From positions 2,252,409 through 2,284,408 of the forward strand of contig NC_011060.1 of the NCBI RefSeq assembly GCF_000020645.1: a stretch of 32,000 nt of DNA. Direction: 5' to 3'. This DNA comes from Pelodictyon phaeoclathratiforme BU-1 (GTDB lineage: Bacteria; Bacteroidota; Chlorobiia; Chlorobiales; Chlorobiaceae). Each line of letters begins with the position of its first letter. The first letter of the stretch is position 1. Position numbers and translations under genes: made by a program. A model generated the notes under the pieces. It saw nothing but the letters and a program-made list of their open reading frames with translations. It was not told the DNA's origin and ran no database searches. Below are positions 5,995-27,588 of the stretch, piece by piece.

Positions 5995-7053
5995 ATGTAC
6001 AAGATTGTCTCAATACCAGGTGACGGTATAGGCCCGGAAGTGGTTGCAGGAGCTGTTTCAGTACTGGAGCAGCTCTCCAGAAAACATGGCTTTGAAATTG
6101 TGATTGAAGAGCACCCCTTTGGCGGCGCCTCCTGGGAACTGCATGGAGAGATGCTCACCCAGGCAACGCTTGATGCCTGCCGGAACTGCGATGCCGTACT
6201 GCTTGGAGCCGTTGGCGGCCCCAAATGGGAGAGCCTGCCACACGAACACAAGCCGGAAGCTGCGCTGCTCAAAATCCGAAAAGAGCTTCAACTCTTTGCC
6301 AACCTCAGACCGGCAAAAGTCTACGACGCACTGATCGACGCATCCTCACTCAAAGCAGATGTGGTTCGTGGCACCGATTTCCTTGTTTTCAGAGAACTTA
6401 CCGGCGGCATCTATTTCGGCCAGCCACGCGGCTTCGATGAAAACCGGGGCTGGAACACCATGGTCTATGAACGCTATGAAGTTGAGCGCATCGCCCGTCT
6501 GGCCTTTGAAACAGCCCGGAAACGGAAGGGCAAGGTCGTCTCGATCGACAAGGCAAATGTACTTGAAGTATCACAGCTCTGGAGAAATGTGGTGCATGAA
6601 CTGCACAAGGAGTTTGCCGATGTGGAGCTGAGCGACATGTATGTAGACAACGCTGCAATGCAGATTGTCCGCAATCCGAAACAGTTTGATGTGATTGTAA
6701 CAAGCAACCTCTTTGGTGACATTTTGAGCGACATTGCAGGCATGATTACCGGCAGTCTCGGTATGCTCCCTTCTGCAAGCATCGGTACAAAATATGCCCT
6801 CTACGAACCAATCCACGGAAGTGCACCGGACATTGCCAGCCAGAACAAGGCCAACCCGATAGCCACCATAGCATCGGTAGCCATGATGTTCGAACACAGC
6901 TTCAAAGTTCCGGAGATTGCCCGTGAGATCGAGCAGGCAATTGAGTCCGCCCTTGCCTCCGGCTGCCGGACAGCAGACATAGCCAATACAGGTGACAGGG
7001 TGATTTCAACAACAGAGATGACAGAAGCAATTGTCAGGCACCTCGGCGCCTGA
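5995..7053 (+). CDS. leuB: 3-isopropylmalate dehydrogenase
   Basis: 352 aa. IVSIPGDGIGPEV at the N-terminus, NLFGDILSD and GSAPDIA motifs of the isocitrate/isopropylmalate dehydrogenase family. Context is the leu cluster. Confidence 0.95.
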   Translation: MYKIVSIPGDGIGPEVVAGAVSVLEQLSRKHGFEIVIEEHPFGGASWELHGEMLTQATLDACRNCDAVLLGAVGGPKWESLPHEHKPEAALLKIRKELQLFANLRPAKVYDALIDASSLKADVVRGTDFLVFRELTGGIYFGQPRGFDENRGWNTMVYERYEVERIARLAFETARKRKGKVVSIDKANVLEVSQLWRNVVHELHKEFADVELSDMYVDNAAMQIVRNPKQFDVIVTSNLFGDILSDIAGMITGSLGMLPSASIGTKYALYEPIHGSAPDIASQNKANPIATIASVAMMFEHSFKVPEIAREIEQAIESALASGCRTADIANTGDRVISTTEMTEAIVRHLGA

Positions 7054-12704: not shown

Positions 12705-13913
12705 ATGCCTACTTCAGACAAAGGACTCTGCAGTTCATGCGGTCTCTGTTCCAATCAGGCTTGGCCGGTTGAACAAAGTCTCCAAAGCTGTGTTTTTAAA
12801 AATGGCTGGCTCGGCGAAAGGGAGAAACAGCTTTTCGGGCGGGAACGCAAGCTCGATGATCCGGTTGAAATGCGCTTTGGCATCACACTTGACCGTTTTA
12901 CAGCTCAACTGAAACTGCCGCTACCCGGATCGCAGTGGAGCGGAATCATTACCCGAATGGCCATGAAGGCCTTTGAAGAGAAGCTTGTTGAAGGCGTTGT
13001 ATCGCTGCAGCACACTCCCGGCAACCATTTTTTCTCTCAACCGGTGTTAGCCCGAAACAGCGATGAGATCTACGCAACAAGAGGCAATAAACCGGTGCTC
13101 TCCCCACTCTTATCCTCCCTTGAAAGCGCATATCATCAGGGGCTGAAAAAAGTCCTTGTCATTGGAGCGGCATGTCACCTCCATACACTCCGGGATTTCA
13201 AGGAACGATTCGAATACCTGCAAGAGATGGAGCTCCTCACCATATGAATTCCCTGCATAGACAACGTCGCACGCTCAAAATGGCCGTGGATTCTGGAGAG
13301 AATGTCGAAATCACCCGATACCGCCTGCCATATGGAGTTCATGCAGGACTTCAGGATTCACATCCGTCACCTTGACGGCAGCATTGAAAAAGTCCCCTTC
13401 TTCAGCCTTCCGGAAGAGCTTTCAAATCCCGCCATCTTCCCCTCTGCATGTATGAGCTGCTTTGACTATCTCAACAGCCTTGCCGACATCACCGTAGGCT
13501 ATATCGGAGCAGAACTGAAGCCAAAGCAGAAGCGGCAATGGATTCTGGTACGAACCGAAACAGGGCAAAAACTGCTAAAGCTGATTGAAGCTGAACTCGA
13601 ACGGTTTCCGGAATCAGGCAAGTGGGAGTGCCGATCATTTGTCGAAAACACGACGAAACGCATCATCGAGAGCATGAAGGAGAGGGATAAAGAGTATTCA
13701 TCGAAAAGCAGAATCCCGCTCTGGCTCGGCAACCTGCTTGCAGGAGCGCTTGGCATGATCGGGCCAAAAGGGGTCGGGTTTGCCCACTACTCGGTTGACT
13801 TTCATCTGATCAGGCATTACTACTACCTCAAATTCCGCCACCCGGAGCGGATCGAAAAGCTGGTGCCACGGCATGTCCGGGTTATCCTTGAGGAATACGG
13901 ACTTCCCCTTTGA
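12705..13913 (+). pseudogene. FrhB/FdhB-family Fe-S flavoprotein (BciB / 7-hydroxymethyl-chlorophyll reductase-like) interrupted by an in-frame TGA at 13245-13247
   Basis: ORFs 12705-13247 and 13302-13913 are in the same frame (both starts are divisible by 3). The read-through gives ...[28 protein letters not shown].... The N-terminal Cys cluster is [10 protein letters not shown] and the C-terminal half has CMSCFDYLN. These are typical of coenzyme F420 hydrogenase beta-subunit-like proteins. Confidence 0.7.
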
Positions 13914-14063: not shown

Positions 14064-14450
14064 TTATACCAGTTGAATTCCTTCTCCATAAGCTGCTACC
14101 ACAGTATCTGAAGTAATCAACAACATTTCTTCTGTCCGGGCTTGTGTAATAAGCATCCGGTCAAAAGGATCTTTATGCAAGAAAGGAAGCATAGTTACAG
14201 CCACAGCATGTTCACTGCTGATAGCTAATTCCCGTTACGCATGAAACAAAAGCATGCGCCTGAACCGGAAGGGATCAACATTAAAATCAGAGCGCCCAAG
14301 TACGGATTTGATACTGATTTCCCAGAGACTTGCTGCACTGAAAAACAAATTATTTACCGGGTTAACAAGCATATCTTTGCATCCCTCCGGTAAAAGATCA
14401 GGTTGAGCTGCAGCCCAAAGAAGAATATGCGTATCAAGCAATAAATTCAC
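14064..14450 (-). pseudogene. vapC: PIN-domain toxin (VapC-like) with an in-frame TAA at 14235-14237
   Basis: The 71-aa ORF MNLLLDTHILLWAAAQP... is a PIN N-terminus. The same frame continues after the TAA as RELAISSEHAVAVTMLPFLHKDPFDRMLITQARTEEMLLITSDTVVAAYGEGIQLV*. That restores a normal ~128-aa VapC (HKDPFDR motif). Confidence 0.75.
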
Positions 14451-14704
14451 TGTGCATTTTCGTTAAATAACCCAGCAATCTCGCTACTGCCCATACGATC
14501 GAAATCTTCCGGCACAGAAATTTCACCAATCATAAAACCAAGGCGTTCTGAACTCCCAGTCATAGAGTCATAGGGTATCACTTTAACCATCGGTCGTCCC
14601 GCCTTGCTGATAATAAAAGCCTTGCCAAGCGCTGCCTGCTCAACCAATCTCACAAGCTGATTTTCCGCATCATGCAGCGTAATTGTGTGCATCGACGATA
14701 TCAT
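14447..14704 (-). CDS. Phd/YefM-type antitoxin paired with the PIN toxin
   Basis: 85 aa. HTITLHDAENQLVRLVEQAALGKAFIISKAGRPMVKVIP is a typical Phd/YefM N-terminus. There is a 4-nt ATGA overlap with the vapC start. An alternative start is at 14692. Confidence 0.8.
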   Translation of the reverse strand: MISSMHTITLHDAENQLVRLVEQAALGKAFIISKAGRPMVKVIPYDSMTGSSERLGFMIGEISVPEDFDRMGSSEIAGLFNENAQ

Positions 14705-15628: not shown

Positions 15629-15678
15629 CCCTTTCAGAGTTCCAGAAAACAGAAAGACAGAAGATCAGGAAGAGGGAC
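15629..15678 (-). promoter_or_regulatory. Candidate IMH / target-recognition flank of VR2
   Basis: 50 nt identical to 22383-22432 (the flank of VR1) and absent next to the TR. It spans the last codons (SPSS*) and 3' UTR of the target gene. Confidence 0.5.
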
Positions 15679-18600
15679 TGGAACGGACAACCCGAAAGCC
15701 AAAACCGCTGAGCCAGCTCGCCGGATGACTGAAGTACCGGGCAGAGCAACGCAGAACGCCGGGAACATAGCCCCAGGAACCGCCGCGCAACGCACGGGCA
15801 AGAGCGTATTTTTCGTGTATATCATCCGTCCACTCCCACACATTGCCAGCCATATCGTACAACCCTTCCGGAGTTGCACCTTCAGGATAGCGCCCAACCG
15901 GTGTTGTGGCTCCCTCATTTTGATTAAAATTTGCCAGTTTTGAATTAGGCGCTGTATTTCCCCACGGATATTCACGTCCATCCTCCCCGGCAGCAGCATA
16001 TTCCCACTCGATTTCTTTGGGCAATCGATAAATATTAGCAATCCTGCCTTCGCTTTCCAGAAGAGAGAGCCACAAGCAATAGGCTTTGGCTGCATACCAG
16101 CTTATATCCATCACCGGTTGTTCCTCCTTGTTAAATCGCTTGTCGTCATCCGATTCAGAGCGGAAAAGCTTTGCCAGATCTCGTTTATCCTGAAGATAAT
16201 CGCTGAATCCATTAATGCTGTTCGCCATTTTCTGTAAGTGGTTGTGGTACAATTCCAGGGTAACAGCATCAATATCGGGCACCTTTCCTGACTGTAGGTA
16301 ATTGAGGAACTGCCGGTACAACTCGTTGGTAACCGTATATTTAGCGACATAAAGATCTGGCATCTTTTCAAGCTTCTCAGTCAACGAGAAAGCAAATGTG
16401 CCACCTTTTATCAGAATGTACTCTGCATGAAGTTTGTCAAATAAAACATTGTTTCTTCCTGATTCGATAAACGTCTTCACTATTGCAAGTGCTTCAGGCT
16501 TGCCAATGATTTTCAGGCACTCCATGATATATCGCTGCCGGTTTGGCGTGGTCTGAAGGTCAAACAACTTCTTTTGCAAGGCATCGATCTTCCGCTGTGG
16601 AGCCTCTTCGACAAGGGTGACGAGCAAGTCCTGCTGCTTTGATGTCAAGTTTTCCGTAACCGGCGAATCGAAAAGCTTCTGCATGAAGCTGTCAAAAAGC
16701 TCTTCATTTTCAACATGGCCGATAAAAAAGCGAAGCGGTTCTTGCCACCAATCGTCTCCAAACCTGGTAACAATGGTGTCGAGATAGTCTGGCCGGTACA
16801 TATTTTTGAGCAGTTGAACACCCGCAAGGTACTCACGGAATGATTTGTGCCGAAAAACATACTCCTTGTCGCCATACTCCACCAGCACCCCGGCCCGGTC
16901 CACAAGATTTTTGCAGAACTCCCCTGCGGGAAGAGAATTGTAGAGCGTGTCGAGCAGCTTTTGCATTTTCTGCTGCATTGCAATCCGGTCAGCTTCGTCT
17001 GTTTTCAGCTCTTCCTGCATCCAGAGAGAAACCGGGCTCAGTACTCGCCGAGCATCTTTGGCTGCAAGCAGCGGATAGATTCCCCTGCGACGGTCACGAT
17101 AATCGAGCATATAATTCAATGCAGCATCATAGAGTTCTGAACGCCCTGCTGGCAGAAACTCCCTCTCTTTCCAGAGCATTGCCATAATCTGCAAGAGCAG
17201 GGGGACACCTGCCAGAGAGTGCATACTCCTGTTTTTTTCCTGCGCGAGAAACGTAATAACTGCGTCAGCTTTTTGCGCCGCTTTTTGAGCGGCCTGTTGT
17301 TCCTGCCGAGCTCTCAACTCCGGTTCATCCCGAGCACTGAGAGGTATCTCCCGAAAAAATGCTGCACTAAACCAAAGATGCAAAAACTCAGCCTGTTTTT
17401 CCTTGGTAAAGTCCATGATATCGGCCCGCAGATGGCTTGCCTCAAGCTCGATGCCATCCCCCTTCCGGTAACCTGTGCTTCGGGAGGTAACCACAAATCG
17501 GGCATTTGTAAACCTTGAAACCGTTCGGTCAATCCAGTCACAAGCAGCCTTCCGATCATCGACGTTGCTGATTTCATCCAGTCCATCAAGGAGTACAAGG
17601 GTTGAGTCCTCACCAAGCCAGCCCGCAAAAAGGTTTTCTTTAATTTTGAGAAAATATTTTTCAGACCATGCGGAAAGAGCTGCCGGCAATGAGGGATAAC
17701 CGGTATCACTCTTGTTGATATCACGCAACGGGAGGTAAAAAACATTGACTGGTTCACTAAAACCAAATTCATGACATCTACCGTTATCAAGGCATGAAAG
17801 TGCATAATATTTGAGCAATGTTGTTTTACCAGAACCCGGATCGCCAATAACCAGTAGCAAGTGATGCTTTTGAAAAACAAAACTCATCACTTCTTCAGGG
17901 GCACGAACGCGCTCTTCTTTTTTGGGTTCACAGAGATCGCCCTCAGTATGGGATCGTGCTTCGCAGCGCCATGTATCAGAAAGACTCAACGAAACAAAGG
18001 TATCCTTATGCCTTACAGAAAAACTCTCGATTGCCGGAGAACCCGAAAGGTTGGTATTGCCAAGTTGCTCTGTCAGCGTTGAGTGGTAGAGCTGGAGAAG
18101 CGAATCTGTGTTGAAATCAAGTGGTTGATACCTGTTTTTCATTGAGGTATCATCACCACATTCTTTTGAACAGAACCACCGGTGAACCTGTATATCAAGC
18201 TGATGAGCAAGTTTTTCCCGGAACTCATGACGCTCGTCATACTCCTCTATCAGCGCATTCGATTGTAGTGATTCCCTGAAGCGATCAAGTGCCTCAATCT
18301 GTTCGATAGTAACATCCTTCCTCCGGTATGGCACATTTGAGAAATAGAGCATGACCAATTTTCCGGCTGCCATCATTCTCTCAACCTCTTCAACCGCCCC
18401 GCCTGGAGCAACACCAGTACCTGTGCCAATGCGTGTCCAGAAAATACCGATAGCAAAATCACATTCATCAACAATCTGTTTATTGAGTATCCCCTGCACC
18501 CGCCCCCCGGTTTCAGGCGCTGCATGTGATTCCCATAACACCGCTTCGAGCATCAGCGGACGCTGTGGCCGAGCATTCCATTTCTTTATGACATCTTCCG

Positions 18601-18688
18601 CCATTTCACGCTCAGCAACAACATCAGAGGGTGATGCGACAAGTACCTTTATGATCCGAATATTTTTATCACTCATTCTTTCTATCAT
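15665..18688 (-). CDS. STAND NTPase: N-terminal DUF4062/NDT/TIR-like domain - NACHT - C-terminal FGE-sulfatase (SUMF1, CLec-fold) domain; DGR target 2
   Basis: 1007 aa. Walker A GDPGSGKT (17822-17845) and NACHT-type Walker B LVLLDGLDEI. The C-terminal ~250 aa carry FGE-family motifs (YILIKGGTF, VSWYAAKAYCLWLS-like, RLPKEIEWEYAA, GLYDMAGNVWEWT, RGGSW, GFRVVRS). It is a paralog of 22419-25568. An alternative start is at 18676 (MSDK...). Confidence 0.85.
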   Translation of the reverse strand: MIERMSDKNIRIIKVLVASPSDVVAEREMAEDVIKKWNARPQRPLMLEAVLWESHAAPETGGRVQGILNKQIVDECDFAIGIFWTRIGTGTGVAPGGAVEEVERMMAAGKLVMLYFSNVPYRRKDVTIEQIEALDRFRESLQSNALIEEYDERHEFREKLAHQLDIQVHRWFCSKECGDDTSMKNRYQPLDFNTDSLLQLYHSTLTEQLGNTNLSGSPAIESFSVRHKDTFVSLSLSDTWRCEARSHTEGDLCEPKKEERVRAPEEVMSFVFQKHHLLLVIGDPGSGKTTLLKYYALSCLDNGRCHEFGFSEPVNVFYLPLRDINKSDTGYPSLPAALSAWSEKYFLKIKENLFAGWLGEDSTLVLLDGLDEISNVDDRKAACDWIDRTVSRFTNARFVVTSRSTGYRKGDGIELEASHLRADIMDFTKEKQAEFLHLWFSAAFFREIPLSARDEPELRARQEQQAAQKAAQKADAVITFLAQEKNRSMHSLAGVPLLLQIMAMLWKEREFLPAGRSELYDAALNYMLDYRDRRRGIYPLLAAKDARRVLSPVSLWMQEELKTDEADRIAMQQKMQKLLDTLYNSLPAGEFCKNLVDRAGVLVEYGDKEYVFRHKSFREYLAGVQLLKNMYRPDYLDTIVTRFGDDWWQEPLRFFIGHVENEELFDSFMQKLFDSPVTENLTSKQQDLLVTLVEEAPQRKIDALQKKLFDLQTTPNRQRYIMECLKIIGKPEALAIVKTFIESGRNNVLFDKLHAEYILIKGGTFAFSLTEKLEKMPDLYVAKYTVTNELYRQFLNYLQSGKVPDIDAVTLELYHNHLQKMANSINGFSDYLQDKRDLAKLFRSESDDDKRFNKEEQPVMDISWYAAKAYCLWLSLLESEGRIANIYRLPKEIEWEYAAAGEDGREYPWGNTAPNSKLANFNQNEGATTPVGRYPEGATPEGLYDMAGNVWEWTDDIHEKYALARALRGGSWGYVPGVLRCSARYFSHPASWLSGFGFRVVRSSPSS
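15679..15800 (-). repeat. DGR variable repeat VR2 (remote target)
   Basis: Aligns without gaps to TR 21850-21971. I count 20 differences, all at positions where the TR has T on the printed strand (A on the coding strand). Confidence 0.8.
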
Positions 18689-18759: not shown

Positions 18760-20158
18760 TCATGACGGAGAAGCAGAACGAACAACCCGAAAACCAATCT
18801 CGGAGGAACTATAAAACGGACTCTGAAAACCGGGAGCTGAGCAGCGCAGATAATCGGGAGTAGTGTCCCACGAACCGCCTCTCAAGAAAAAACGCTCTTT
18901 TTCTTTCTCATTCTCATTCCTGTGTTCCATCCACTCCCACACATTTCCTGCCATATCATACAACCCGTCAGGAGTCGCACCATCGGGATAAACACCAACC
19001 AGTGTTGTTGTCTCTTTCTTGCTCATCTTATAATTTGCACGTTGCTGCGTTGGAGAAGAACTGCCCCATGGATAGGGGCGTTGTTCCTTGCCGCTGGCAC
19101 AATATTCCCACTCAATCTCTGTCGGCAGCCGATACAATCCTGCATCCATGCATCCCGTTTCAAGACATGAAAGCCAGTAGCAATACGCTTTTGCGGCATA
19201 CCAGCTTACCCCAACCACCGGTTGATGATCCTTGTTGAATCGGTCATCATCTTCATAAACGGAACGTAAGCGCTCTGTCAAATCCGACTCCCCCTGAAGA
19301 TAGTCGTAGAATCCCGTCTCGTGAATTTTGTTTGCATAAAGCAAGCAACTTTTGCCTAAAAATTTCGGTAGACAGTACCTCAATAAAAGAGCCCTTGCCT
19401 GACAGGTAGTTGATAAACTGTCGATAGCGAGAGTTAGTCACAGCATATTTTGCCATGTAGAGATCAGTCACAACTTCGGACTTGTCTGTCAAAGAGTAGG
19501 TGAATGTACCTCCCTTGATCAGGATATAATGTGCACCAAGCTTGTCAAGCAGCATAAAGTTTATCCAGCGCTCTACCAACAAAACTTTATCTGCGTAAGA
19601 GATATCATCAAGATCCAACCCTCGTTGTTTCATAAGATCGGGCTGAGTCGCCTTAAACTCCATATAATTGTCAAGAATCACTTTAGGCCCAGGAATTGCA
19701 TCATTAATCTTGAGTGCATGCAAAACATCCCTGATACACTTGATCAACTTCTTAATATCATTGTCATGAGATTTGACATCTTGACCCGATATATCCGAAA
19801 TAAACTGTTGATAACGATGGGGATCCCTGTCAAGAATAAGCGACACTTTAGACTTCTGCAACTTTGAACCAAATCGTTTGGCACCAAGAAAAAGCCCTAG
19901 CTCAAAGGGCATATTAAATCTGGGCAGCTTGGTCTTTTTATCAGGTTCTGTTCTTGATATATCATGGATTCCACAACAACACTCTTCAATGATTCGATTG
20001 ATTTTTTCTATGCGTACCTGGCCGCCATCATCAAATTCGTAAGCACAGCGAGGACGAAAACCACACTTATAGACCGTAAAAAGAATAGCATCAAAAAACG
20101 GAATGTACTCTTTGTCAAAAGGGCAATTAATAAACACATTGAGGTTATGTGGTGGCAT
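18760..20158 (-). pseudogene. Frameshifted gene: N-terminal NDT/TIR-like Rossmannoid domain fused to an FGE-sulfatase (CLec-fold) domain; no NACHT
   Basis: ORFs 19253-20158 and 18760-19383 overlap in different frames and together rebuild one FGE domain (YILIKGGTFTYSL ... VSWYAAKAYCYWLS ... GLYDMAGNVWEWM ... RGGSW ... GFRVVRS). The frame switch maps to a tandem GCAAGCAA at 19341-19348. Confidence 0.7.
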
Positions 20159-20240: not shown

Positions 20241-20468
20241 CTACGGGACATCCTCTCCCGATCGTGAATCCTCTACAGCCTCCAGAATATCTTTCGTTGC
20301 TGCTCTTGTTTTCACCCCTTTGACATCAAAAGGAGAATTTGAAAGCTGTTTATACACAACGGCAAATTGTTCACCACTCCGTTTTTTGATAATCACCTCT
20401 TCCGTACGAGCAAGATCAAACACCTTGGCGAATTTCTTTCGCGCTTCAGAATAGCTGTAAACTTTCAT
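20241..20468 (-). CDS. Orphan Phd/YefM-like antitoxin
   Basis: 75 aa. MKVYSYSEARKKFAKVFDLARTEEVIIKKRSGEQFAVV is a Phd/YefM-type N-terminus. Only ~80 nt separate it from the next gene, so there is no room for a cognate toxin. Confidence 0.65.
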   Translation of the reverse strand: MKVYSYSEARKKFAKVFDLARTEEVIIKKRSGEQFAVVYKQLSNSPFDVKGVKTRAATKDILEAVEDSRSGEDVP

Positions 20469-20610: not shown

Positions 20611-21642
20611 TCAGCTCTTTTCCACCAGCCCCAACGAGCGCAACAGATTGCGGGTATCGGCCTGCCGGGCGTGACCAACCCACCCGGCAAGGCTTTTCTG
20701 CAAGGTTTCCGGCTTGGCAAGCAGGGTGCATTGTATCCGTTTTTTTGCTCTCCGAACATTTGCTGAAGGAAGTAACCGGTAGCTCTGAAAAACTTTTTGC
20801 CCGAGAAAGCACTTCCCTTCTGTTGCCGGGTAAAGCTCTGTTCTCCCTGAATTAAGCGTCAATCTGAATTGTTGCAAAAACTCTTCGATTGCTTTTTTCC
20901 ACTCCCACAATTCATCCTTGCTATCGGAAAACAAGACGTAATCATCAACGTATCTTACGTAGCCTTTGCATCGCAACACCTCTTTTACGTAGTGATCCAG
21001 AAAGCTGAGGTAGTAGTTGGCAAAAAACTGGCTGGTCAGGTTCCCGATAGGCAGCCCTTTTCTCCGTTCATGAGGGGTAAAAAGGGTGTCACCGGGGAAA
21101 TAGTGAAAATGCTCTGCCTGTATGTTACTGTTATCAATAATGGTATCAATAAGCCACAAAGTGTCAGCGCAGGCTATTTTTCTGCGAAGCAACGATTTGA
21201 GTATCTCGTGATCGATTGATGGAAAATATTTCCGGATATCACACTTCAGCACATAAGCATACTTTTTCAGATAGTGCTGGTAGCGCTCTATGGCCTTGTG
21301 TGTTCCCTTGGCCGTTCTGTTGGCATAGGTGTCGAAAATAAAGCTCCGTTCAAGAAGAGGGCCAACAATAGTGATCAGGGCATGATGCACAACGCGGTCT
21401 TTAAAGGGAGCTGCGCTGATCATTCTTGGTTTTGGCTTGTAGATGCTGAAGGTTTTGTATGAACCGGGCTGCCAGGTTTTCGTTCGCAACTCCGAAAGAA
21501 TCTGCCAGAGGTTCTCTTCCAGAAAGGTGAAAAAGTGCAGCACCGACTGGTTTTCGCGCTTTCCTTTCGCCGCTTTTTGGGCTGCTGAAAGCACATTTTC
21601 GAAGGTTACAATGCTCTGAAAAAGGTTTTTGCTGGTTTTCAT
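20611..21642 (-). CDS. Diversity-generating retroelement reverse transcriptase
   Basis: 343 aa. RT motifs include LPIGNLTSQFFANYYL (the DGR-type I/LGxxxSQ motif) and the catalytic YVRYVDD. The size, the N-terminus (NLFQSIVTFENVLSAAQKAAKGKR) and the adjacent TR and avd fit DGR RTs. Confidence 0.9.
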   Translation of the reverse strand: MKTSKNLFQSIVTFENVLSAAQKAAKGKRENQSVLHFFTFLEENLWQILSELRTKTWQPGSYKTFSIYKPKPRMISAAPFKDRVVHHALITIVGPLLERSFIFDTYANRTAKGTHKAIERYQHYLKKYAYVLKCDIRKYFPSIDHEILKSLLRRKIACADTLWLIDTIIDNSNIQAEHFHYFPGDTLFTPHERRKGLPIGNLTSQFFANYYLSFLDHYVKEVLRCKGYVRYVDDYVLFSDSKDELWEWKKAIEEFLQQFRLTLNSGRTELYPATEGKCFLGQKVFQSYRLLPSANVRRAKKRIQCTLLAKPETLQKSLAGWVGHARQADTRNLLRSLGLVEKS

Positions 21643-21699: not shown

Positions 21700-21849
21700 T
21701 TATGGGTACTGTTCGTGCATGTTCCACTGAGTGCAATGGCAACATGCCGCAGGAGAAAGAGCCCGGGATGTCATGCCCAAAAAACTGTCCGTTATTCCTT
21801 GAAAGAACGGCATCATAATGGGCTTTAACACGCATCGAAAGGGGCATGA

Positions 21850-21974
21850 TTGGAACGGACAACCCGAAAGCCAATATTGTTGTTCCTGTTCGCCGGATGA
21901 TTGTTGTTCCGGGCAGAGCAACGCAGATTGTCGGGATTATTGTTCCAGGAACCGCCGCGCAACGCACGGGCAGA
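21850..21974 (-). repeat. DGR template repeat (TR)
   Basis: Non-coding 125-nt copy of the VRs between avd and the RT. In the target frame it reads ...[31 protein letters not shown]..., with 11 AAY codons. The boundaries are approximate (+/- 5 nt). Confidence 0.85.
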
Positions 21975-22037: not shown

Positions 22038-22373
22038 TCAAGCTTTTTTTATCCATCCGCCCAGCATCTTCCCCAATTCTGAAATCTGGCTGCTCCCAAA
22101 CTCATAGGAGTTCAAGCTGATAAATTTCATGTCAAAACTCAATCGAACCAGAATGCGCAAACGCGTCAGCACCTCATCGGCCTGCTCCAGCAATGGTCGT
22201 TTGACGTTCCGCATATTGGCAACTGCCACAAGCTCTGTAAACTCGAGTATAGAATTTTCGATACGCACAGCAATACTGAACCGGTAGCTTTTGGGAAATT
22301 TCCCAGTATGCAGCAGCAGCCATTTCGAAAAATCGTAGGCCTTTTTGACGATCAGCATTTCATGATTCTGCAC
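22038..22373 (-). CDS. avd: Accessory variability determinant (Avd-like four-helix-bundle protein)
   Basis: 111 aa. KKAYDFSKWLLLHTGKFPKSYRFSIAVRIE ... ELGKMLGGWIKK matches my recollection of Avd / 23S-rRNA-IVS-family proteins. Its position between the VR and the TR is canonical. Confidence 0.8.
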   Translation of the reverse strand: MQNHEMLIVKKAYDFSKWLLLHTGKFPKSYRFSIAVRIENSILEFTELVAVANMRNVKRPLLEQADEVLTRLRILVRLSFDMKFISLNSYEFGSSQISELGKMLGGWIKKA

Positions 22374-22382
22374 AAATTTTTT

Positions 22383-22432
22383 CCCTTTCAGAGTTCCAGA
22401 AAACAGAAAGACAGAAGATCAGGAAGAGGGAC
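22383..22432 (-). promoter_or_regulatory. Candidate IMH / target-recognition flank of VR1
   Basis: 50 nt identical to 15629-15678. The TR flank diverges here (coding sense: VR ...CCGTTCCAGTCCCTCTTCC versus TR ...CCGTTCCAATCATGCCCCT). Confidence 0.5.
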
Positions 22433-25400
22433 TGGAACGGACAACCCGAAAGCCAACATTGCCGCTCCTGTGCGCCGGATGAAGGTCGTACCGGGCAGAG
22501 CAACGCAGACCGTCGGGATACTTGCTCCAGGAACCGCCGCGCAACGCACGGGCAGATTTAAAATACTCATCCGACGTATTGTTTTCGTATAAATCTTCCA
22601 TCCACTCCCACACATTGCCTGCCATATCATATAGCCCCTCCGGTGTAGCGCCATCGGGATAGCGCCCTACAGGAGTTGTGGCGCCTTCATTACTATCATA
22701 ATTGGCTCTAGTGGTTGAGGGCTCCTCCTCGCCCCAAGGGTATGTTCTGTTCTCTTTGCCACCTGCGGCATATTCCCACTCCTTTTCTGTGGGCAAATGA
22801 TAAAGGGTGCCATCCTGACCATTGCTCTCAAGCAACGAAAGCCAGAGGCAATAGGCCTTGGCGGCATACCAGGTTACACCCATCACCGGTTGATCTTCCT
22901 TGTTGAATCGCTTGTCGTCATCATAAAAAGAAGCAAGAAGCTTTACCAGCGATTCTTCACCCTTGAGATAATCGCCAAACCCCTCAATCTCCCCAGCCTC
23001 AGATCGTAGAGTTTTTGTATACAATTCAACCGATACATCCTTGGCAAATACAGGCTCTCGGGAATCCAGATAAGCAATAAATTGCCGGTACAACTTGTTG
23101 GTAACCGTATATTTGGCAACGTAAAGGTCTGGCACTGTTTCCTGCTTCTCAGTCACGGAGAAGGTAAAGGTACCTCCCTCGATAAGGATGTATTGCGCAT
23201 CGAGTTCATAGGGATTGTATCTGACAGAAATTGCCTTCACACTAACATTCACCTTACAGACGATGTCAGCGGTGATATCAGAGGCAATTTTAACCCCTGG
23301 AATTTCATAAGCAAGACGCAGAATATCGGCGTCTTTGGTGCAGTTAGCGTCAATGAACTTCTGTACAGCTTTGACAGCTTCCGGCTTACCGATGGTTTTC
23401 AAGCACTCCAAGAGATATCGCTGCCTATTTGGCGTTGTTGCCGGGTCAAGCAACTTCTTTTGCAAGGCGTCAACCTTCCTCTGGGGAGCCTCCTCAACAA
23501 GGGCAACAAGCAAGTCCTGCTGCTTTTGAGTCAAGTTTTCTGTAACCGGCGAATCAAAAAGCATCTGCATAAAGCTGTCGAACAGTTCCGCATCATCAAC
23601 ATGGCCGATAAAAAAGCGAAATACCTCCTGCCACCAGTCGTCACCAAAGCGGGTAACAAGCGTGTCAAGATAACCTGGCCGGTGCATGTTTTTCACAAGC
23701 TGCACACCCGCCAGGTACTCTCTGAATGATTTGTGCCGGAAAACATACTCTCGGTCACCATATTCCACGAGCACCCCGGCCCGATCAACAAGGTTACGGC
23801 AGAACTCCCCTGCGGGAAGCGAGTTGCAGAGGGTATCAAGCAGTTCCTGCATTTTTAACTGCATGTCAATTCTACCAACCTCGTCCTTTTTAAGCTCCTC
23901 CTGCATCCAGAGTGAGACCGGACTCAGAACGCGCCGGGCATCTTCTGCCCCAAGCAATGGGGATATTCCTCTACGCCGGTCACGATAATCGAGCATAAAA
24001 TTCAATGCCGCATCATAGAGCTTCAACCGGCTACCCGGCATATATTCTCGCTCTTTCCAGAGCATGGCCATAATCTGCAACAGCAAGGGAATCCCTGCGA
24101 GTGTTTGCATACTTCTATTTTTTTCCTGTGCCAGAAACGCAATAAGAGCATCTGCTTTTTTCGTAGCCACATGTTCCTGCTGGCTTCGCCACGCCGCCTG
24201 ATATCCTGCTGGAGGAATCTCTCCCAAGTATGCAGCCTTGAACCACTGCTGTAAAAATTGCGCCTGCTGCTCTTTTGTAAAATCCATGATATCAGCCCTC
24301 AAATGGCCAGCTTCAAGCTCAATGCCATCCCCTTTCCGATAACCCGTGCTTCGTGACGTCACAACAAAACGGGCATTGGTAAATCCACCAACCGTGCGGT
24401 CTATCCAGCCACAGACCGCTATCCGGTCGTGAACATCGCTGATTTCGTCGAGACCATCGAGAAGCACCAATGTTGACGGCTTGTCAAGCCAGCCGGAAAA
24501 GAGTGTTTCTTCAATCTTGAGAAAATGTTTTTCCGACCATGCCGCCAGGTTTTCCGATAATGACATGTAGCCGGTATCACTTTTCTTGAGTTCACGCAAC
24601 GGAAGAAAAAAAACATTGACTGGTTCACGAAAGCCAAACTCCTGATAGCGTTTGTTATCGAAGCAGGAGAGTGCATAATATTTGAGCAAAGTTGTCTTTC
24701 CCGAACCGGGATCACCGATAACGAGCAGTAAAAGATTATGCTGAAAAACAAAGCTCATCACCTCTTCAGGGGTACTGTTGCGTTCATCCTTCTGCGGTTC
24801 GCACAAAGCCTCCCCTGCACGAAATCGCTCTTCGCACCGCGATGAACCTGAGAGAGTTAACGAAACGAAGGTGTCGGATAGTTTTACTGAAAAACTTTCA
24901 AGGGCGGGAGAGCCTGTCAGGGTGATATTTCCGAGTTGTTGTTTCAATGTGGATTGGTAGCGGAACAAATCAGCCGCAGCGTTGCGGGTATGCGAGCAAA
25001 TACGATTGCCTGAAAAAACGACATCCGAATTTTTTTGAGCGAACCAGTTCTGAATCTGAAGGTCAAGATGTGTGACAAGATCGCTCTTGAACATGGAGAG
25101 ATCATCATATTCCCACAAAAGAAGATAATTTTGCAATGTTTTCCGGAAAGTCTCAAGCTCTCCAACCTGCCGGGAAAATTCTGCCACCTTGCCTGCATCA
25201 GAAGTGTCAAGAGGATACTTTGCTCTGGAAAAATAGAGCATGACCTGTTTTTCATCGTTCATCAGGCGCTGTACCTCTTCAACTGCTCCTCCCGGCGCAA
25301 CACCTGTATCGGTGCCAATCCTTGTCCAAAAAATAGCAATGGCAAAATGGCATTGATCTACGAACTGTCTGTTGAGAATTCCCTGCGTCCGTTCCCCGCT

Positions 25401-25568
25401 TTGAGGAGCAGCGCGTTCCTCCCACAATACAGGATCAAGTATGAGTTCAGACTCTGGATGTCGGTGATTCCAGCCCAATATTACCTCTTTGGCAATATCC
25501 CGCTCTTCTGCTACATCTGAAGGCGAAGCAACAAGAACTTTTATTTTGCGATACAATTTATCACTCAT
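22419..25568 (-). CDS. STAND NTPase: N-terminal DUF4062/NDT/TIR-like domain - NACHT - C-terminal FGE-sulfatase (CLec-fold) domain; DGR target 1
   Basis: 1049 aa. GDPGSGKTTLLKYYALSC, LVLLDGLDEI and FTNARFVVTSRSTGYRKGDGIELEA are shared with the 15665-18688 paralog. The C-terminal FGE motifs are YILIEGGTF, VTWYAAKAYCLWLS, GLYDMAGNVWEWM, RGGSW and GFRVVRS. Confidence 0.85.
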   Translation of the reverse strand: MSDKLYRKIKVLVASPSDVAEERDIAKEVILGWNHRHPESELILDPVLWEERAAPQSGERTQGILNRQFVDQCHFAIAIFWTRIGTDTGVAPGGAVEEVQRLMNDEKQVMLYFSRAKYPLDTSDAGKVAEFSRQVGELETFRKTLQNYLLLWEYDDLSMFKSDLVTHLDLQIQNWFAQKNSDVVFSGNRICSHTRNAAADLFRYQSTLKQQLGNITLTGSPALESFSVKLSDTFVSLTLSGSSRCEERFRAGEALCEPQKDERNSTPEEVMSFVFQHNLLLLVIGDPGSGKTTLLKYYALSCFDNKRYQEFGFREPVNVFFLPLRELKKSDTGYMSLSENLAAWSEKHFLKIEETLFSGWLDKPSTLVLLDGLDEISDVHDRIAVCGWIDRTVGGFTNARFVVTSRSTGYRKGDGIELEAGHLRADIMDFTKEQQAQFLQQWFKAAYLGEIPPAGYQAAWRSQQEHVATKKADALIAFLAQEKNRSMQTLAGIPLLLQIMAMLWKEREYMPGSRLKLYDAALNFMLDYRDRRRGISPLLGAEDARRVLSPVSLWMQEELKKDEVGRIDMQLKMQELLDTLCNSLPAGEFCRNLVDRAGVLVEYGDREYVFRHKSFREYLAGVQLVKNMHRPGYLDTLVTRFGDDWWQEVFRFFIGHVDDAELFDSFMQMLFDSPVTENLTQKQQDLLVALVEEAPQRKVDALQKKLLDPATTPNRQRYLLECLKTIGKPEAVKAVQKFIDANCTKDADILRLAYEIPGVKIASDITADIVCKVNVSVKAISVRYNPYELDAQYILIEGGTFTFSVTEKQETVPDLYVAKYTVTNKLYRQFIAYLDSREPVFAKDVSVELYTKTLRSEAGEIEGFGDYLKGEESLVKLLASFYDDDKRFNKEDQPVMGVTWYAAKAYCLWLSLLESNGQDGTLYHLPTEKEWEYAAGGKENRTYPWGEEEPSTTRANYDSNEGATTPVGRYPDGATPEGLYDMAGNVWEWMEDLYENNTSDEYFKSARALRGGSWSKYPDGLRCSARYDLHPAHRSGNVGFRVVRSSPSS
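22433..22557 (-). repeat. DGR variable repeat VR1
   Basis: Gap-free alignment to TR 21850-21974. I count 14 differences, 13 at TR adenines (coding strand) and one at a non-adenine (22521). Confidence 0.85.
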
Positions 25569-25861
25569 TCTTCCTCGAGCCCCATTAATCGTCTTGTATG
25601 ATAAAGAGAGATAACAACAACCCGTGATACTTTTTCGTCTACTCTGTAAACAATCCGGTACTCTCCATGCAACAACTCACGAAGAGAATCTTCAGAAAAT
25701 TCCGGAACAACTCTTCCGATATAAGGGAAATCAGCAAGTTTCATAACGGATTGCCTGACAGATTCCGCCCAATTTCTGGCTGCACCGGGTTTATCAACAG
25801 CAATAAACCGCACAACCTCTTCAATCTGAGAGGCCGCACGTTCTGAAAATTCGACGATCAT
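25565..25861 (-). CDS. parE: ParE/RelE-superfamily toxin
   Basis: 98 aa. The architecture ...FPYIGRVVPEF ... LRELLHGEYRIVYRVDEKVSRVVVISLYHTRR is typical of ParE-like toxins. There are 4-nt overlaps with the upstream antitoxin and with the downstream NACHT gene. Confidence 0.8.
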   Translation of the reverse strand: MIVEFSERAASQIEEVVRFIAVDKPGAARNWAESVRQSVMKLADFPYIGRVVPEFSEDSLRELLHGEYRIVYRVDEKVSRVVVISLYHTRRLMGLEEE

Positions 25862-26148
25862 CGCTTTTCAGCTTCGGCAATGATCTTTTCAAGCGAGGCA
25901 AAAACCTCCTTTGCTGGTACAGTGCGGTTGTTGCGATAATCTTCAAGCCCTTCGGTAACCGACTGCATAAATGCTATTTGATCAAGCATCTGTTGATATG
26001 ATTCCGCATCAAGCAGCACAGCCGAACCTCTCCCTGTCCGCGTTAACAGCAGCGGTTGTTTGCTGACGCTCAGCTCCTCCATATACCGTTCGATATTGTT
26101 TCCGAAATCTGTTAATGGAGCAACGTTCCTGACTTGAATGGTATGCAT
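25858..26148 (-). CDS. Phd/YefM-type antitoxin of the ParE toxin
   Basis: MHTIQVRNVAPLTDFGNNIERYMEELSVSKQPLLLTRTGRGSAVLLDAESYQQM is Phd/YefM-like. I prefer the ATG at 26148 over the track start at 26208. Confidence 0.8.
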   Translation of the reverse strand: MHTIQVRNVAPLTDFGNNIERYMEELSVSKQPLLLTRTGRGSAVLLDAESYQQMLDQIAFMQSVTEGLEDYRNNRTVPAKEVFASLEKIIAEAEKR

Positions 26149-26223
26149 GGCATTCACAAGAAGTAATAAGGTGACACTATCTTGTACAAGGTAACTCCAT
26201 TCATACAAAAATCATTACCCGTT

Positions 26224-26313
26224 TTATGAGAAACAACCCAATCCCAGCGAGCGCAAAAGGTTACTGATATCGGCCTGCCGGGCTTGATGCTGTTTCACCT
26301 CTTCAAGCTTCGC
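26224..26313 (-). pseudogene. Relic 3' end of a second DGR-type RT gene
   Basis: The minus strand reads AKLEEVKQHQARQADISNLLRSLGLGCFS*, against the intact RT C-terminus GWVGHARQADTRNLLRSLGLVEKS*. Nucleotide similarity to 20620-20680 is visible by eye. It is bounded upstream by a stop, and no RT body is present. Confidence 0.45.
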
Positions 26314-26365: not shown

Positions 26366-26750
26366 TCAAGCAATTTTCGGAGGCTGGATTGCCGAGGAGT
26401 TGAAGGCTACAAGCTTGTGCCAGTTGATAGCACCACTGTCGTCGCAATACTCGATACTGAATTGGCGGGTAAATTTATTGAGCATCCTGTCATAGGAGTC
26501 CTGAAACTCTTCGCTTTTTTCCTGGGCCTTGTGACCCAGCGGGTCGATAAGCTCGGTGTAGAGATTGGGATCTGAAGAGATAAACTCCCAAAAAGTCTGG
26601 CCGCAATATTTGAAATAGTCGCCCTGATCGGGGGTACTAACTCTGCCGTAACAGCAGCCATTAACGGCAACAACCTATTCTTTTCTGATGAAAGGTGCCG
26701 ATGTTCTCTTCAACGTAGGTCAATACGTCGTTCAGGATAAGTGGTTTCAT
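26366..26750 (-). pseudogene. Remnant of a probable type II restriction endonuclease (frameshifted, apparently missing its middle)
   Basis: AAGGAGGAG RBS plus an ATG at 26750, overlapping the methyltransferase 3' end, gives MKPLILNDVLTYVEENIGTFHQKRIGCCR*. A startless frame (26674-26366) reads ...GCCYGRVSTPDQGDYFKYCGQTFWEFISSDPNLYTELIDPLG...*. The RE assignment comes from context and remembered motifs only. Confidence 0.35.
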
Positions 26751-27588
26751 GCTCCTCCTTTTGTTCCAGCAGATAGAGTTCAACCGGTTTCAGCTCCGTT
26801 TTTACCATGTCGTAGTACTCTGGCACAATTTCAATGCCGATAGAGTTTCTTCTCATTCTTTGCGCTACCGCATTGGTTGTTCCTGACCCCATGAATGGAT
26901 CGAGCACAGTATCTCCCTCTTTGGTAAAGAGCTTGATAAACCATTCCGGAAGCCCTTCAGGAAAGGCTGCGCTGTGTTTTTTGTTGTTGCATTCTGTGGC
27001 GAGGTGCAGCACGTTGGTCGGATAGGCCATCTCCCGATCCAGCCAGTTTGAGATATTTTTTCCGAACCCGCTGCCGACCTTCGATTCATCACGCGTTTTG
27101 TCGGTCTCACTCAGGTTTTTCAGGCGGGTTTTCGACCAATCGCCCATTGGCACCATAACGGCTTTCTGGTCCATATAAAAGTGCTTGCTTTTATTGAACT
27201 GGATCAACCGTTCCCAGGAATCCCTGAATCGGTTTGGCCATTTACCGGGATAACAGTTTTTTTTATGCCAGATAAATTCTTCTGTCCAGAACCAGCCCTG
27301 CTTCCTCATTTCAAGAATGAGTTCCATCACGTAGGTACTCCGTTCGCCATTGACAACCTTCTCCTTGATGTTCAGGACAAAGGTACCTGTTGGTTTCAGC
27401 ACCCTCAGAAGCTGCAGGGATATCGGTAAAAACCACTCAACATAATCGTCCGGATGAAAGCCGCCATAGGTTTGTTTTCTCTGGTCAGCATAGGGCGGGG
27501 AGGTAAATATCAGGTCTACCGAATCATCCGGCAACGTTTTGAGCAGTTGTGTGCAGTCTCCAAGGTAGAGATCCGTTTTTGTTTCCAT
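26710..27588 (-). CDS. Beta-class DNA methyltransferase (N4-cytosine or N6-adenine)
   Basis: 292 aa. Motif IV TSPPY precedes motif I DPFMGSGTT (beta-class order). The SPPY form hints at m4C specificity. Confidence 0.85.
   Translation of the reverse strand: METKTDLYLGDCTQLLKTLPDDSVDLIFTSPPYADQRKQTYGGFHPDDYVEWFLPISLQLLRVLKPTGTFVLNIKEKVVNGERSTYVMELILEMRKQGWFWTEEFIWHKKNCYPGKWPNRFRDSWERLIQFNKSKHFYMDQKAVMVPMGDWSKTRLKNLSETDKTRDESKVGSGFGKNISNWLDREMAYPTNVLHLATECNNKKHSAAFPEGLPEWFIKLFTKEGDTVLDPFMGSGTTNAVAQRMRRNSIGIEIVPEYYDMVKTELKPVELYLLEQKEEHETTYPERRIDLR

Follow-up and report, generated by a model that had tools for sequence, protein, structure and literature searches.

The 32,000-nucleotide stretch of DNA analysed here (the window; positions 2,252,409 to 2,284,408 of contig NC_011060.1, assembly GCF_000020645.1) derives from the green sulfur bacterium Pelodictyon phaeoclathratiforme BU-1 (DSM 5477). 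It contains a diversity-generating retroelement (DGR) and two large paralogous genes, termed target 1 (T1) and target 2 (T2), each of which ends in a variable repeat (VR) related to the template repeat (TR) of the DGR. Three proteins encoded in the window are exact matches to BU-1 proteins (T1, ACF44391.1; T2, ACF44387.1; IlvC, ACF44375.1). The features on which the analysis is centred are the following, with positions numbered from the first nucleotide of the window.

22419-25568, minus strand: T1 open reading frame (ORF), encoding a 1049-residue DUF4062-like / NACHT / helical / FGE-type C-type-lectin (CLec) protein (ACF44391.1, WP_012508868.1)
25041-25550, minus strand: T1 residues 7-176, TIR-like/flavodoxin-like domain, putative divergent DUF4062
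24234-24728, minus strand: T1 residues 281-445, NACHT nucleoside triphosphatase (NTPase); motifs GDPGSGKT (Walker A, 285), LLDGLDE (Walker B, 369) and TSR (404-406)
23229-24233, minus strand: T1 residues 446-780, all-helical region (helical and winged-helix domains of NLR type) after the NACHT domain
22437-23192, minus strand: T1 residues 793-1044, FGE-sulfatase subclass CLec domain
22431-22555, minus strand: VR1, T1 residues 1005-1046 (last 42 codons), 88% match to the TR
22038-22373, minus strand: bAvd accessory protein (NCBIfam DivGenRetAVD, 108.4 bits versus 80; Pfam bAvd, 73.9 bits)
21849-21973, minus strand: TR, 125 nucleotides, 28 adenines
20611-21642, minus strand: DGR reverse transcriptase (RT), 343 residues (Pfam RVT_1, 70.9 bits; IGNLTSQ and YVDD motifs in the translation)
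15665-18688, minus strand: T2, 1007-residue paralogue with the same architecture as T1 and 64% identical to it (ACF44387.1)
15677-15801, minus strand: VR2 of T2, 22 mismatches to the TR, 21 of them at TR adenines (P = 7e-17)

The bAvd gene, the TR and the RT gene lie directly downstream of T1 on the same strand. Between VR1 and the TR there are 15 mismatches, and 14 of them fall on adenines of the TR (P = 4e-10 under random placement, hypergeometric test). T1 and T2 are both served by this TR. The 29 adenines of the in-frame TR stretch are distributed over codon positions 1, 2 and 3 as 14, 15 and 0, the VR contains 11 AAY codons, and a stop codon cannot be reached by any substitution. Fifteen codons of VR1 are variable (1015-1017, 1019-1020, 1027-1030 and 1033-1038), giving approximately 1.7e15 possible proteins. 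Across 68 full-length homologues the mean entropy was 3.09 bits at these codons versus 1.30 bits in the rest of the FGE domain, making them the family's most variable FGE sites, and the scaffold residues between the variable codons (RGGSW, LRC, P1031 and GFRV) were nearly invariant. T1 residues 978-1043 align to chain residues 217-291 of TvpA from Treponema denticola, with the VR falling on the C-terminal VR of TvpA. In TvpA and in the Bordetella phage protein Mtd the fold arranges the variable residues into a ligand-binding site, and in TvpA the invariant end encoded by the initiation of mutagenic homing (IMH) sequence forms the last strand, beta5 (PMC5006420). By homology, the variable residues of VR1 would be located on the ligand-binding face of the domain.

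Each VR carries a single non-adenine mismatch, at 22521 in VR1 (codon 1016, TR AAT to AAG) and at 15801 in VR2 (its first base); such mismatches are ordinary point mutations or rare non-adenine misincorporations. Near-identical non-coding sequence is present 3' of both VRs (22393-22438 and 15639-15684) and has no equivalent at the TR; VR and downstream flank together make up a 175-nucleotide repeat, with 88% identity between the two genes. A canonical short-loop hairpin was not found after the VRs, the VR ends bearing just a 7-nucleotide inverted repeat (GTTCCAG/CTGGAAC) with a 32-nucleotide loop, which makes an unconvincing cruciform element. The shared flank and inverted repeat could represent a retrohoming cis element or a recent duplication.

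The central and C-terminal domains of T1 were identified with Pfam, in which NACHT scored 53.6 bits (cut-off 26.7) and FGE-sulfatase 163.7 bits (cut-off 23.3); the NACHT region of T1 and of T2 additionally matched NPHP3_N. The Walker A, Walker B and sensor residues of T1 are invariant across the 68 full-length homologues, which also formed the input alignment for a full-length AlphaFold2 (AF2) model. This model has a mean predicted local distance difference test (pLDDT) score of 81 and a predicted TM-score (pTM) of 0.66, and is poor only at the linkers 179-194, 242-262 and 760-777; residues 446-780 are predicted at a pLDDT of 80-95 with helical secondary structure. When the model was compared with the PDB using Foldseek, the top matches of the centre were NLRC4 (4kxf, E = 2.5e-14), NLRP3, NLRP7 and Apaf-1 (E = 3e-7), with target-normalised TM-scores (TMt) of 0.57-0.60 for NLRP3 NACHT constructs and alignments to NLRC4 and NLRP3 of approximately 600 columns, covering the NACHT domain together with the helical region that follows. 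At the C-terminus the matches were EgtB, OvsA, PorK and TvpA (TvpA, E = 1.6e-7, TMt 0.54), and sequence searches of the PDB were concordant, TvpA (2y3c) being matched with E = 2.8e-10. The catalytic cysteine positions of FGE presumably fall inside the variable stretch of the T1 domain.

A crude hydropathy scan of T1 found neither a hydrophobic N-terminus nor a transmembrane (TM) segment (maximum 19-residue Kyte-Doolittle mean 1.36). A role for T1 as a surface adhesin or lipoprotein was rejected on this basis, and since signal peptide and TM segment are both absent from the scan, the sensor is taken to face the cytoplasm. The family of T1 is large (more than 1,700 matches at E <= 1e-10), and, among members with a source name, the closest come from Chlorobiaceae. 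The curated EruA family does not include T1, for which the NCBIfam equivalog antiphage_EruA scored 28 bits, within a range of 28-35 bits, versus a cut-off of 1000. A preliminary description of T1, made from the sequence alone, had proposed a three-part cytoplasmic protein, with an N-terminal Rossmannoid domain, a central NACHT NTPase and a C-terminal FGE-sulfatase domain ending in the VR of a DGR. This architecture is borne out by the Pfam matches to NACHT and FGE-sulfatase and by the beta-alpha AF2 fold of the N-terminal domain, the link to the DGR by the adenine-directed mismatches in the last 42 residues, and the lack of a signal peptide or TM segment by the hydropathy scan; all quoted motifs were located where they had been placed (including FWTRIG at 80 and AVEEV at 95), and the profile and structure searches that it had proposed returned NLRC4, NLRP3 and Apaf-1 for the centre and EgtB, PorK and TvpA for the C-terminus. 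It had missed T2 as a second NACHT-FGE target of the same TR.

The N-terminal domain of T1 (residues 7-176) was predicted by AF2 with a pLDDT of 86.8 and a pTM of 0.83, and consists of five strands and five helices alternating in beta-alpha order. Foldseek matched it to the plant TIR domains of L6, L7, RRS1 and RPS4 and to DNPH1, a hydrolase of the nucleoside deoxyribosyltransferase (NDT) family, with E values of 6e-5 to 2e-3, a result that is consistent with a TIR/NDT-like fold and is not decisive. The sequence evidence for an assignment to DUF4062 (PF13271) is stronger than that from Foldseek. Matches to DUF4062 were obtained for 28 of the 35 close relatives at E <= 0.01 and for 27 of the 40 distant representatives at E <= 0.001, several relatives found by phmmer at E of approximately 1e-30 carry precomputed PF13271 matches, and a paralogue with the same NACHT-FGE chassis scored 40 bits. 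Residues W49-E50, Q62, F80-W81 and E97-E98 of T1 are invariant in the 68 close homologues and in the 40 distant representatives. In the AF2 model E97-E98 lie after strand 3, at the start of helix 3, and by location they may correspond to E97 of KpSwz and E1008 of TEP1. Among 1.84 billion proteins, a profile of the N-terminal domain retrieved 14,366 representatives (E <= 0.001), mostly stand-alone proteins of 200-450 residues; the profile gave no meaningful match to the sequences of the PDB. Among PADLOC models, mad8 matched weakly and the defence-candidate model PDC-S60 partially, the latter covering T1 residues 8-305 (E = 1e-18) and T2 residues 11-168 (E = 3e-22). Taken at the level of the family, this evidence supports the N-terminal domain as a putative divergent DUF4062, T1 itself being sub-threshold.

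DUF4062 is described as a TIR-like NADase in two 2026 preprints (10.64898/2026.05.01.722283, 10.64898/2026.06.25.731849), according to which a conserved glutamate is required (KpSwz E97, TEP1 E1008, Eva01 E87), single-gene anti-phage systems employ the domain (Swarozyc, triggered by the phage portal, and Evangelion), and human TEP1, NWD1, NWD2 and NPHP3 have DUF4062 adjoining NACHT. FGE domains and retroelements are mentioned in neither preprint. The NACHT-FGE chassis of T1 is found in paralogues with different N-terminal domains, namely canonical DUF4062, a metallophosphatase or a domain that is unannotated in Pfam, and such N-terminal variability among otherwise conserved proteins fits an effector slot.

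Many Chlorobiaceae NACHT-FGE paralogues, which align over T1 residues ~200-1049 only, belong to the unannotated group; their N-terminal consensus, 'LLIFIGHSDD...WEW...FVFxxRVGxVTWxELE', resembles the DUF4062 motif pattern. In a few paralogues the N-terminus consists of HATPase_c_4 with canonical DUF4062, or of a metallophosphatase.

We judge the chances to be evenly balanced that T1 and T2 are cytoplasmic NLR-type tripartite receptors, in which a DGR-diversified lectin is connected by a NACHT switch to a DUF4062 NADase output. The mechanism is the model that Doré et al. 2024 (PMC10907252) put forward for the DGR clade in question. The C-terminal FGE-type CLec domain would be the sensor, with its ligand-binding residues rewritten by the neighbouring DGR: RT and Avd would copy TR RNA with adenine-specific errors, and the resulting cDNA would replace the VR. 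The lectin domain would bind a ligand, the likeliest being a protein from a phage or other invader, and autoinhibition would be released, upon which the NACHT module would bind ATP and oligomerise. Oligomerisation would bring the DUF4062 TIR-like domains into proximity and switch on NAD+ hydrolysis, and the infected cell would be arrested or killed, protecting the clonal net-like colony. The model starts from what is observed at the locus, that is the architecture of the two proteins, their intact catalytic motifs, an adenine-specific history of TR and VR at two targets, and hypervariability across the family at precisely the TR-adenine codons. It would extend to the ligand class, oligomerisation, NADase activity, defence role and present-day DGR activity of T1 and T2, each of which is a prediction.

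Several observations weigh against this reading. The structural matches of the N-terminal domain to TIRs and DNPH1 are modest (TM-scores of 0.45-0.65) and are listed among Ras and other flavodoxin-like folds, and the scores of T1 (18.7 bits, E = 0.002) and T2 (18.8 bits) against Pfam DUF4062 are both below the cut-off of 24.7. Among ten contigs (L081-L090) from different samples, all encoding an identical RT, VR1 was identical in eight of the eight assemblies covering it and VR2 in seven of eight, so that no current diversification was seen. The neighbourhood holds toxin-antitoxin modules and a DNA methyltransferase and no recognised defence system. Finally, no ligand, NADase activity or phage phenotype has been reported for any DGR-diversified STAND protein.

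Of the alternatives, the one that survives best retains the same receptor and assigns to the N-terminal domain a function other than NAD+ depletion, whether production of a nucleotide signal (as in Thoeris or plant TIRs), nucleotide hydrolysis of the NDT/DNPH1 type, or no more than a role in oligomerisation or as an adaptor. The best Foldseek matches include DNPH1 (TMt 0.65) and non-catalytic TIRs (for example RRS1), T1 is a divergent, sub-threshold DUF4062, and Osinski et al. allow that DUF4062 activities may exceed NADase in complexity. This alternative is nevertheless considered unlikely, given that close and distant relatives alike retain, without exception, the two adjacent glutamates located where DUF4062 has its catalytic region, and that no candidate signal-activated effector gene (SLOG, SIR2 or STING type) was found in the locus.

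The other features of the neighbourhood that bear on the DGR locus are listed below.

18760-20158, minus strand: T3, third FGE gene, with a short, different N-terminal domain followed by FGE, between the RT gene and T2; 1-nucleotide frameshift near 19340
25565-26208, minus strand: Phd/YefM antitoxin and ParE toxin genes, directly upstream of T1, the Phd gene preceding ParE
20241-20468 and 14447-14704, minus strand: two further Phd/YefM-type antitoxin genes, interleaved with the DGR locus

T3 is split into ORFs of 301 and 207 residues in the window and in contig L090, and is intact (465 residues) in nine other assemblies of the same clone; an orthologue of 463 residues follows the RT gene in the metagenome-assembled genome of another Chlorobiaceae member (L003, 629-2020). 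The frameshift is either a polymorphic 1-nucleotide indel or a sequencing error. The N-terminal domain of T3 gave a weak match to the CAP12/Pycsar TIR (E = 0.003). At its VR-like end (18772-18896) T3 has only 60% identity to the TR and 50 mismatches across all bases, and approximately 33 of the 42 residues there are kept in the orthologue of the different species. Because of this low identity, the mismatches at every base and the conservation across species, T3 is not a current target of the TR, and it was rejected as a third active target.

A further reading, that the DGR is effectively frozen in this strain and that T1 and T2 are sensors of fixed specificity whose adenine pattern records past events, is more doubtful than a different N-terminal activity and is regarded as improbable. 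In its favour are the identity of the VRs across assemblies from different samples, the decay of the neighbouring T3, and the 90% clusters of T1 and T2, which hold no other VR variants among approximately 15 billion proteins. The sole variant among the assemblies likewise fails to be a new adenine-mutated allele. It occurs in L087, which has 14 mismatches to the window, most or all of them in a chimeric VR2 (~6516-6640) that joins a 5' half from VR2 to a 3' half matching VR1 exactly, and that points to gene conversion or recombination between the VRs, or to an assembly chimera, rather than to fresh adenine mutagenesis. Except for L087, identity of the ten contigs to the window is 99.96-100%, with 1-2 differences per 15 kb, and they are therefore treated as one clone; the TR is identical in all eight assemblies that hold it. 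The comparison of VR variants is thus a weak test, being made on consensus assemblies of one clone in which minority alleles are hidden, and it neither proves nor excludes DGR activity. Against a frozen DGR, RT, Avd and TR are intact and all AAY codons are kept in the TR, and the presence of only one non-adenine change per VR argues for little drift after homing. Past diversification is clear, since the differences between VR1 and VR2, and between either of them and the TR, are almost confined to adenines.

The stop codon of ParE overlaps the start codon of T1 (ATGA), which suggests co-transcription of phd, parE and T1. Just upstream of the Phd/ParE pair, on the minus strand at 26238-26287, 45-50 nucleotides match the 3' end of the RT gene at 82-84% identity and would encode '...ARQADISNLLRSLGLG', to be compared with '...ARQADTRNLLRSLGLV' in the RT. 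The intact RT gene is also followed next by a Phd gene, and the segment therefore resembles the relic of a second RT-Phd junction, which raises the possibility of a duplication or rearrangement of the DGR module. Next to the island is a gene for an N6/N4 DNA methyltransferase (26710-27588, minus strand), in whose vicinity no restriction enzyme was recognised. The N- and C-terminal domains of FrhB are encoded by two adjacent ORFs (12705-13247 and 13302-13913, plus strand), representing a split gene or a pseudogene. The locus is flanked by ilv/leu biosynthesis, PAS histidine kinase, lipocalin, purU-like and cation-efflux genes, and a phage-borne DGR was rejected in view of these flanks, which lack tRNA and phage structural genes. 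A role in kin, self/non-self or other signalling within multicellular colonies, akin to the heterokaryon incompatibility of fungal NLRs, in place of anti-phage defence was raised explicitly by Doré et al. as an alternative to antigen sensing and would agree with a host that forms three-dimensional net-like colonies (Dataset S3, PMC10907252) and with the lack of a known defence system adjoining the locus, but it too is improbable, as a cytoplasm-facing sensor is better suited to injected or expressed invader molecules than to neighbouring cells, and the DUF4062 proteins that have been assayed function in phage defence.

The DGR-diversified NACHT-FGE system, including that of this genome, is already published. 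Doré et al. 2024 (PNAS, PMC10907252) described DGR clade 5D, in which two targets combining NACHT/nSTAND with CLec were interpreted as putative antigen sensors. Dataset S6 of the same study lists a BU-1 RT (642728382) with FGE+NACHT genes at -2 and +2, a pattern that agrees with the gene order of the locus and with the spacing of the GenBank accessions; a second DGR in the BU-1 genome is listed as well, and the BU-1 RTs are placed among clade 5. The domain list used there includes PF01582 (TIR) and not DUF4062, and most N-terminal extensions are unannotated. Earlier, DiGReF (2012) had recorded a BU-1 RT with four VRs, Wu et al. (2018) had catalogued FGE targets that also carry domains of the Toll-like receptor, NTPase and metallophosphatase types, and Kaur et al. 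(2020) had tied DGR-diversified FGS domains to NTP-dependent conflict systems. A 2026 Nature survey catalogued STANDs with FGE-sulfatase sensors, DGRs being unmentioned. The preliminary description is outdated where it held that the combination had merely been noted in surveys, in view of clade 5D and the BU-1 entry of Dataset S6, and where it held the N-terminal domain to be uncharacterised, in view of the preprints on DUF4062; its suggestion of a DUF4062/NDT/TIR-like N-terminus is supported at the level of the family by the PF13271 matches of relatives and by Foldseek.

The new element is that the N-terminal extension is provisionally assigned, with support from profile matches among relatives, to DUF4062, a family of TIR-like NADases, with NAD+ depletion as the predicted output. 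At a little under an even chance, T1 and T2 may be the first recognisable DGR-diversified sensors to be wired via NACHT to a defined enzymatic output, the DUF4062 NADase, and thus a bacterial counterpart of the domain order of TEP1, NWD1 and NPHP3 with a hypervariable lectin replacing WD40. The assignment yields a specific and assayable prediction, NAD+ depletion, in a cultured strain, and it links these bacterial receptors to the animal DUF4062-NACHT proteins. DGR-diversified STAND proteins are the nearest bacterial thing to a receptor repertoire made by targeted mutation and, if the proposed output is correct, NAD+ loss would provide a simple readout for what such intracellular receptors recognise and for how autoimmunity is avoided.

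Among known systems, the loci of DGR clade 5D described by Doré et al. (e.g. Thiohalocapsa PB-PSB1 DGR 3) resemble the BU-1 locus in having a chromosomal DGR, two paralogous targets and a multicellular host, and, within each target, an N-terminal extension, a central NACHT domain and a single C-terminal CLec/FGE domain diversified by the DGR. They differ in that the extension is here assigned to DUF4062 and that the BU-1 locus is without an adjacent peptidase, effector-associated domain (EAD) or adaptor gene. With the family of Swarozyc (KpSwz), Evangelion (Eva01) and TEP1, T1 shares an N-terminal beta-alpha domain of five strands and five helices, a conserved glutamate after strand 3 and PF13271 matches in relatives, and with TEP1, NWD1 and NPHP3 the position of this domain directly before NACHT. 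Swarozyc and Evangelion, unlike T1, are each a short protein encoded by a single gene and equipped with a small auxiliary sensor, whereas TEP1 and NWD1 have WD40 sensors; none of the DUF4062 NADases has been reported with an FGE/CLec sensor or a DGR, and T1 differs further in falling below the threshold of the Pfam model. TvpA and Mtd share with T1 an FGE-subclass CLec domain, a VR at the extreme C-terminus, AAY codons and an invariant IMH end, but as a surface lipoprotein and a phage tail-fibre tip, respectively, they face outwards and are without an NTPase or effector domain. The tripartite layout of effector, NTPase and sensor is common to Avs, bNACHT, EruA and the animal NLRs and related proteins (NLRC4, NLRP3, Apaf-1), and the predicted NACHT and helical module of T1 superposes on NLRC4 and NLRP3. 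The sensors of those proteins are germline-fixed TPR, LRR, WD40 or bespoke domains, in contrast to T1, in which the sensor has a lectin fold and comes with a built-in, somatic-style diversifier.

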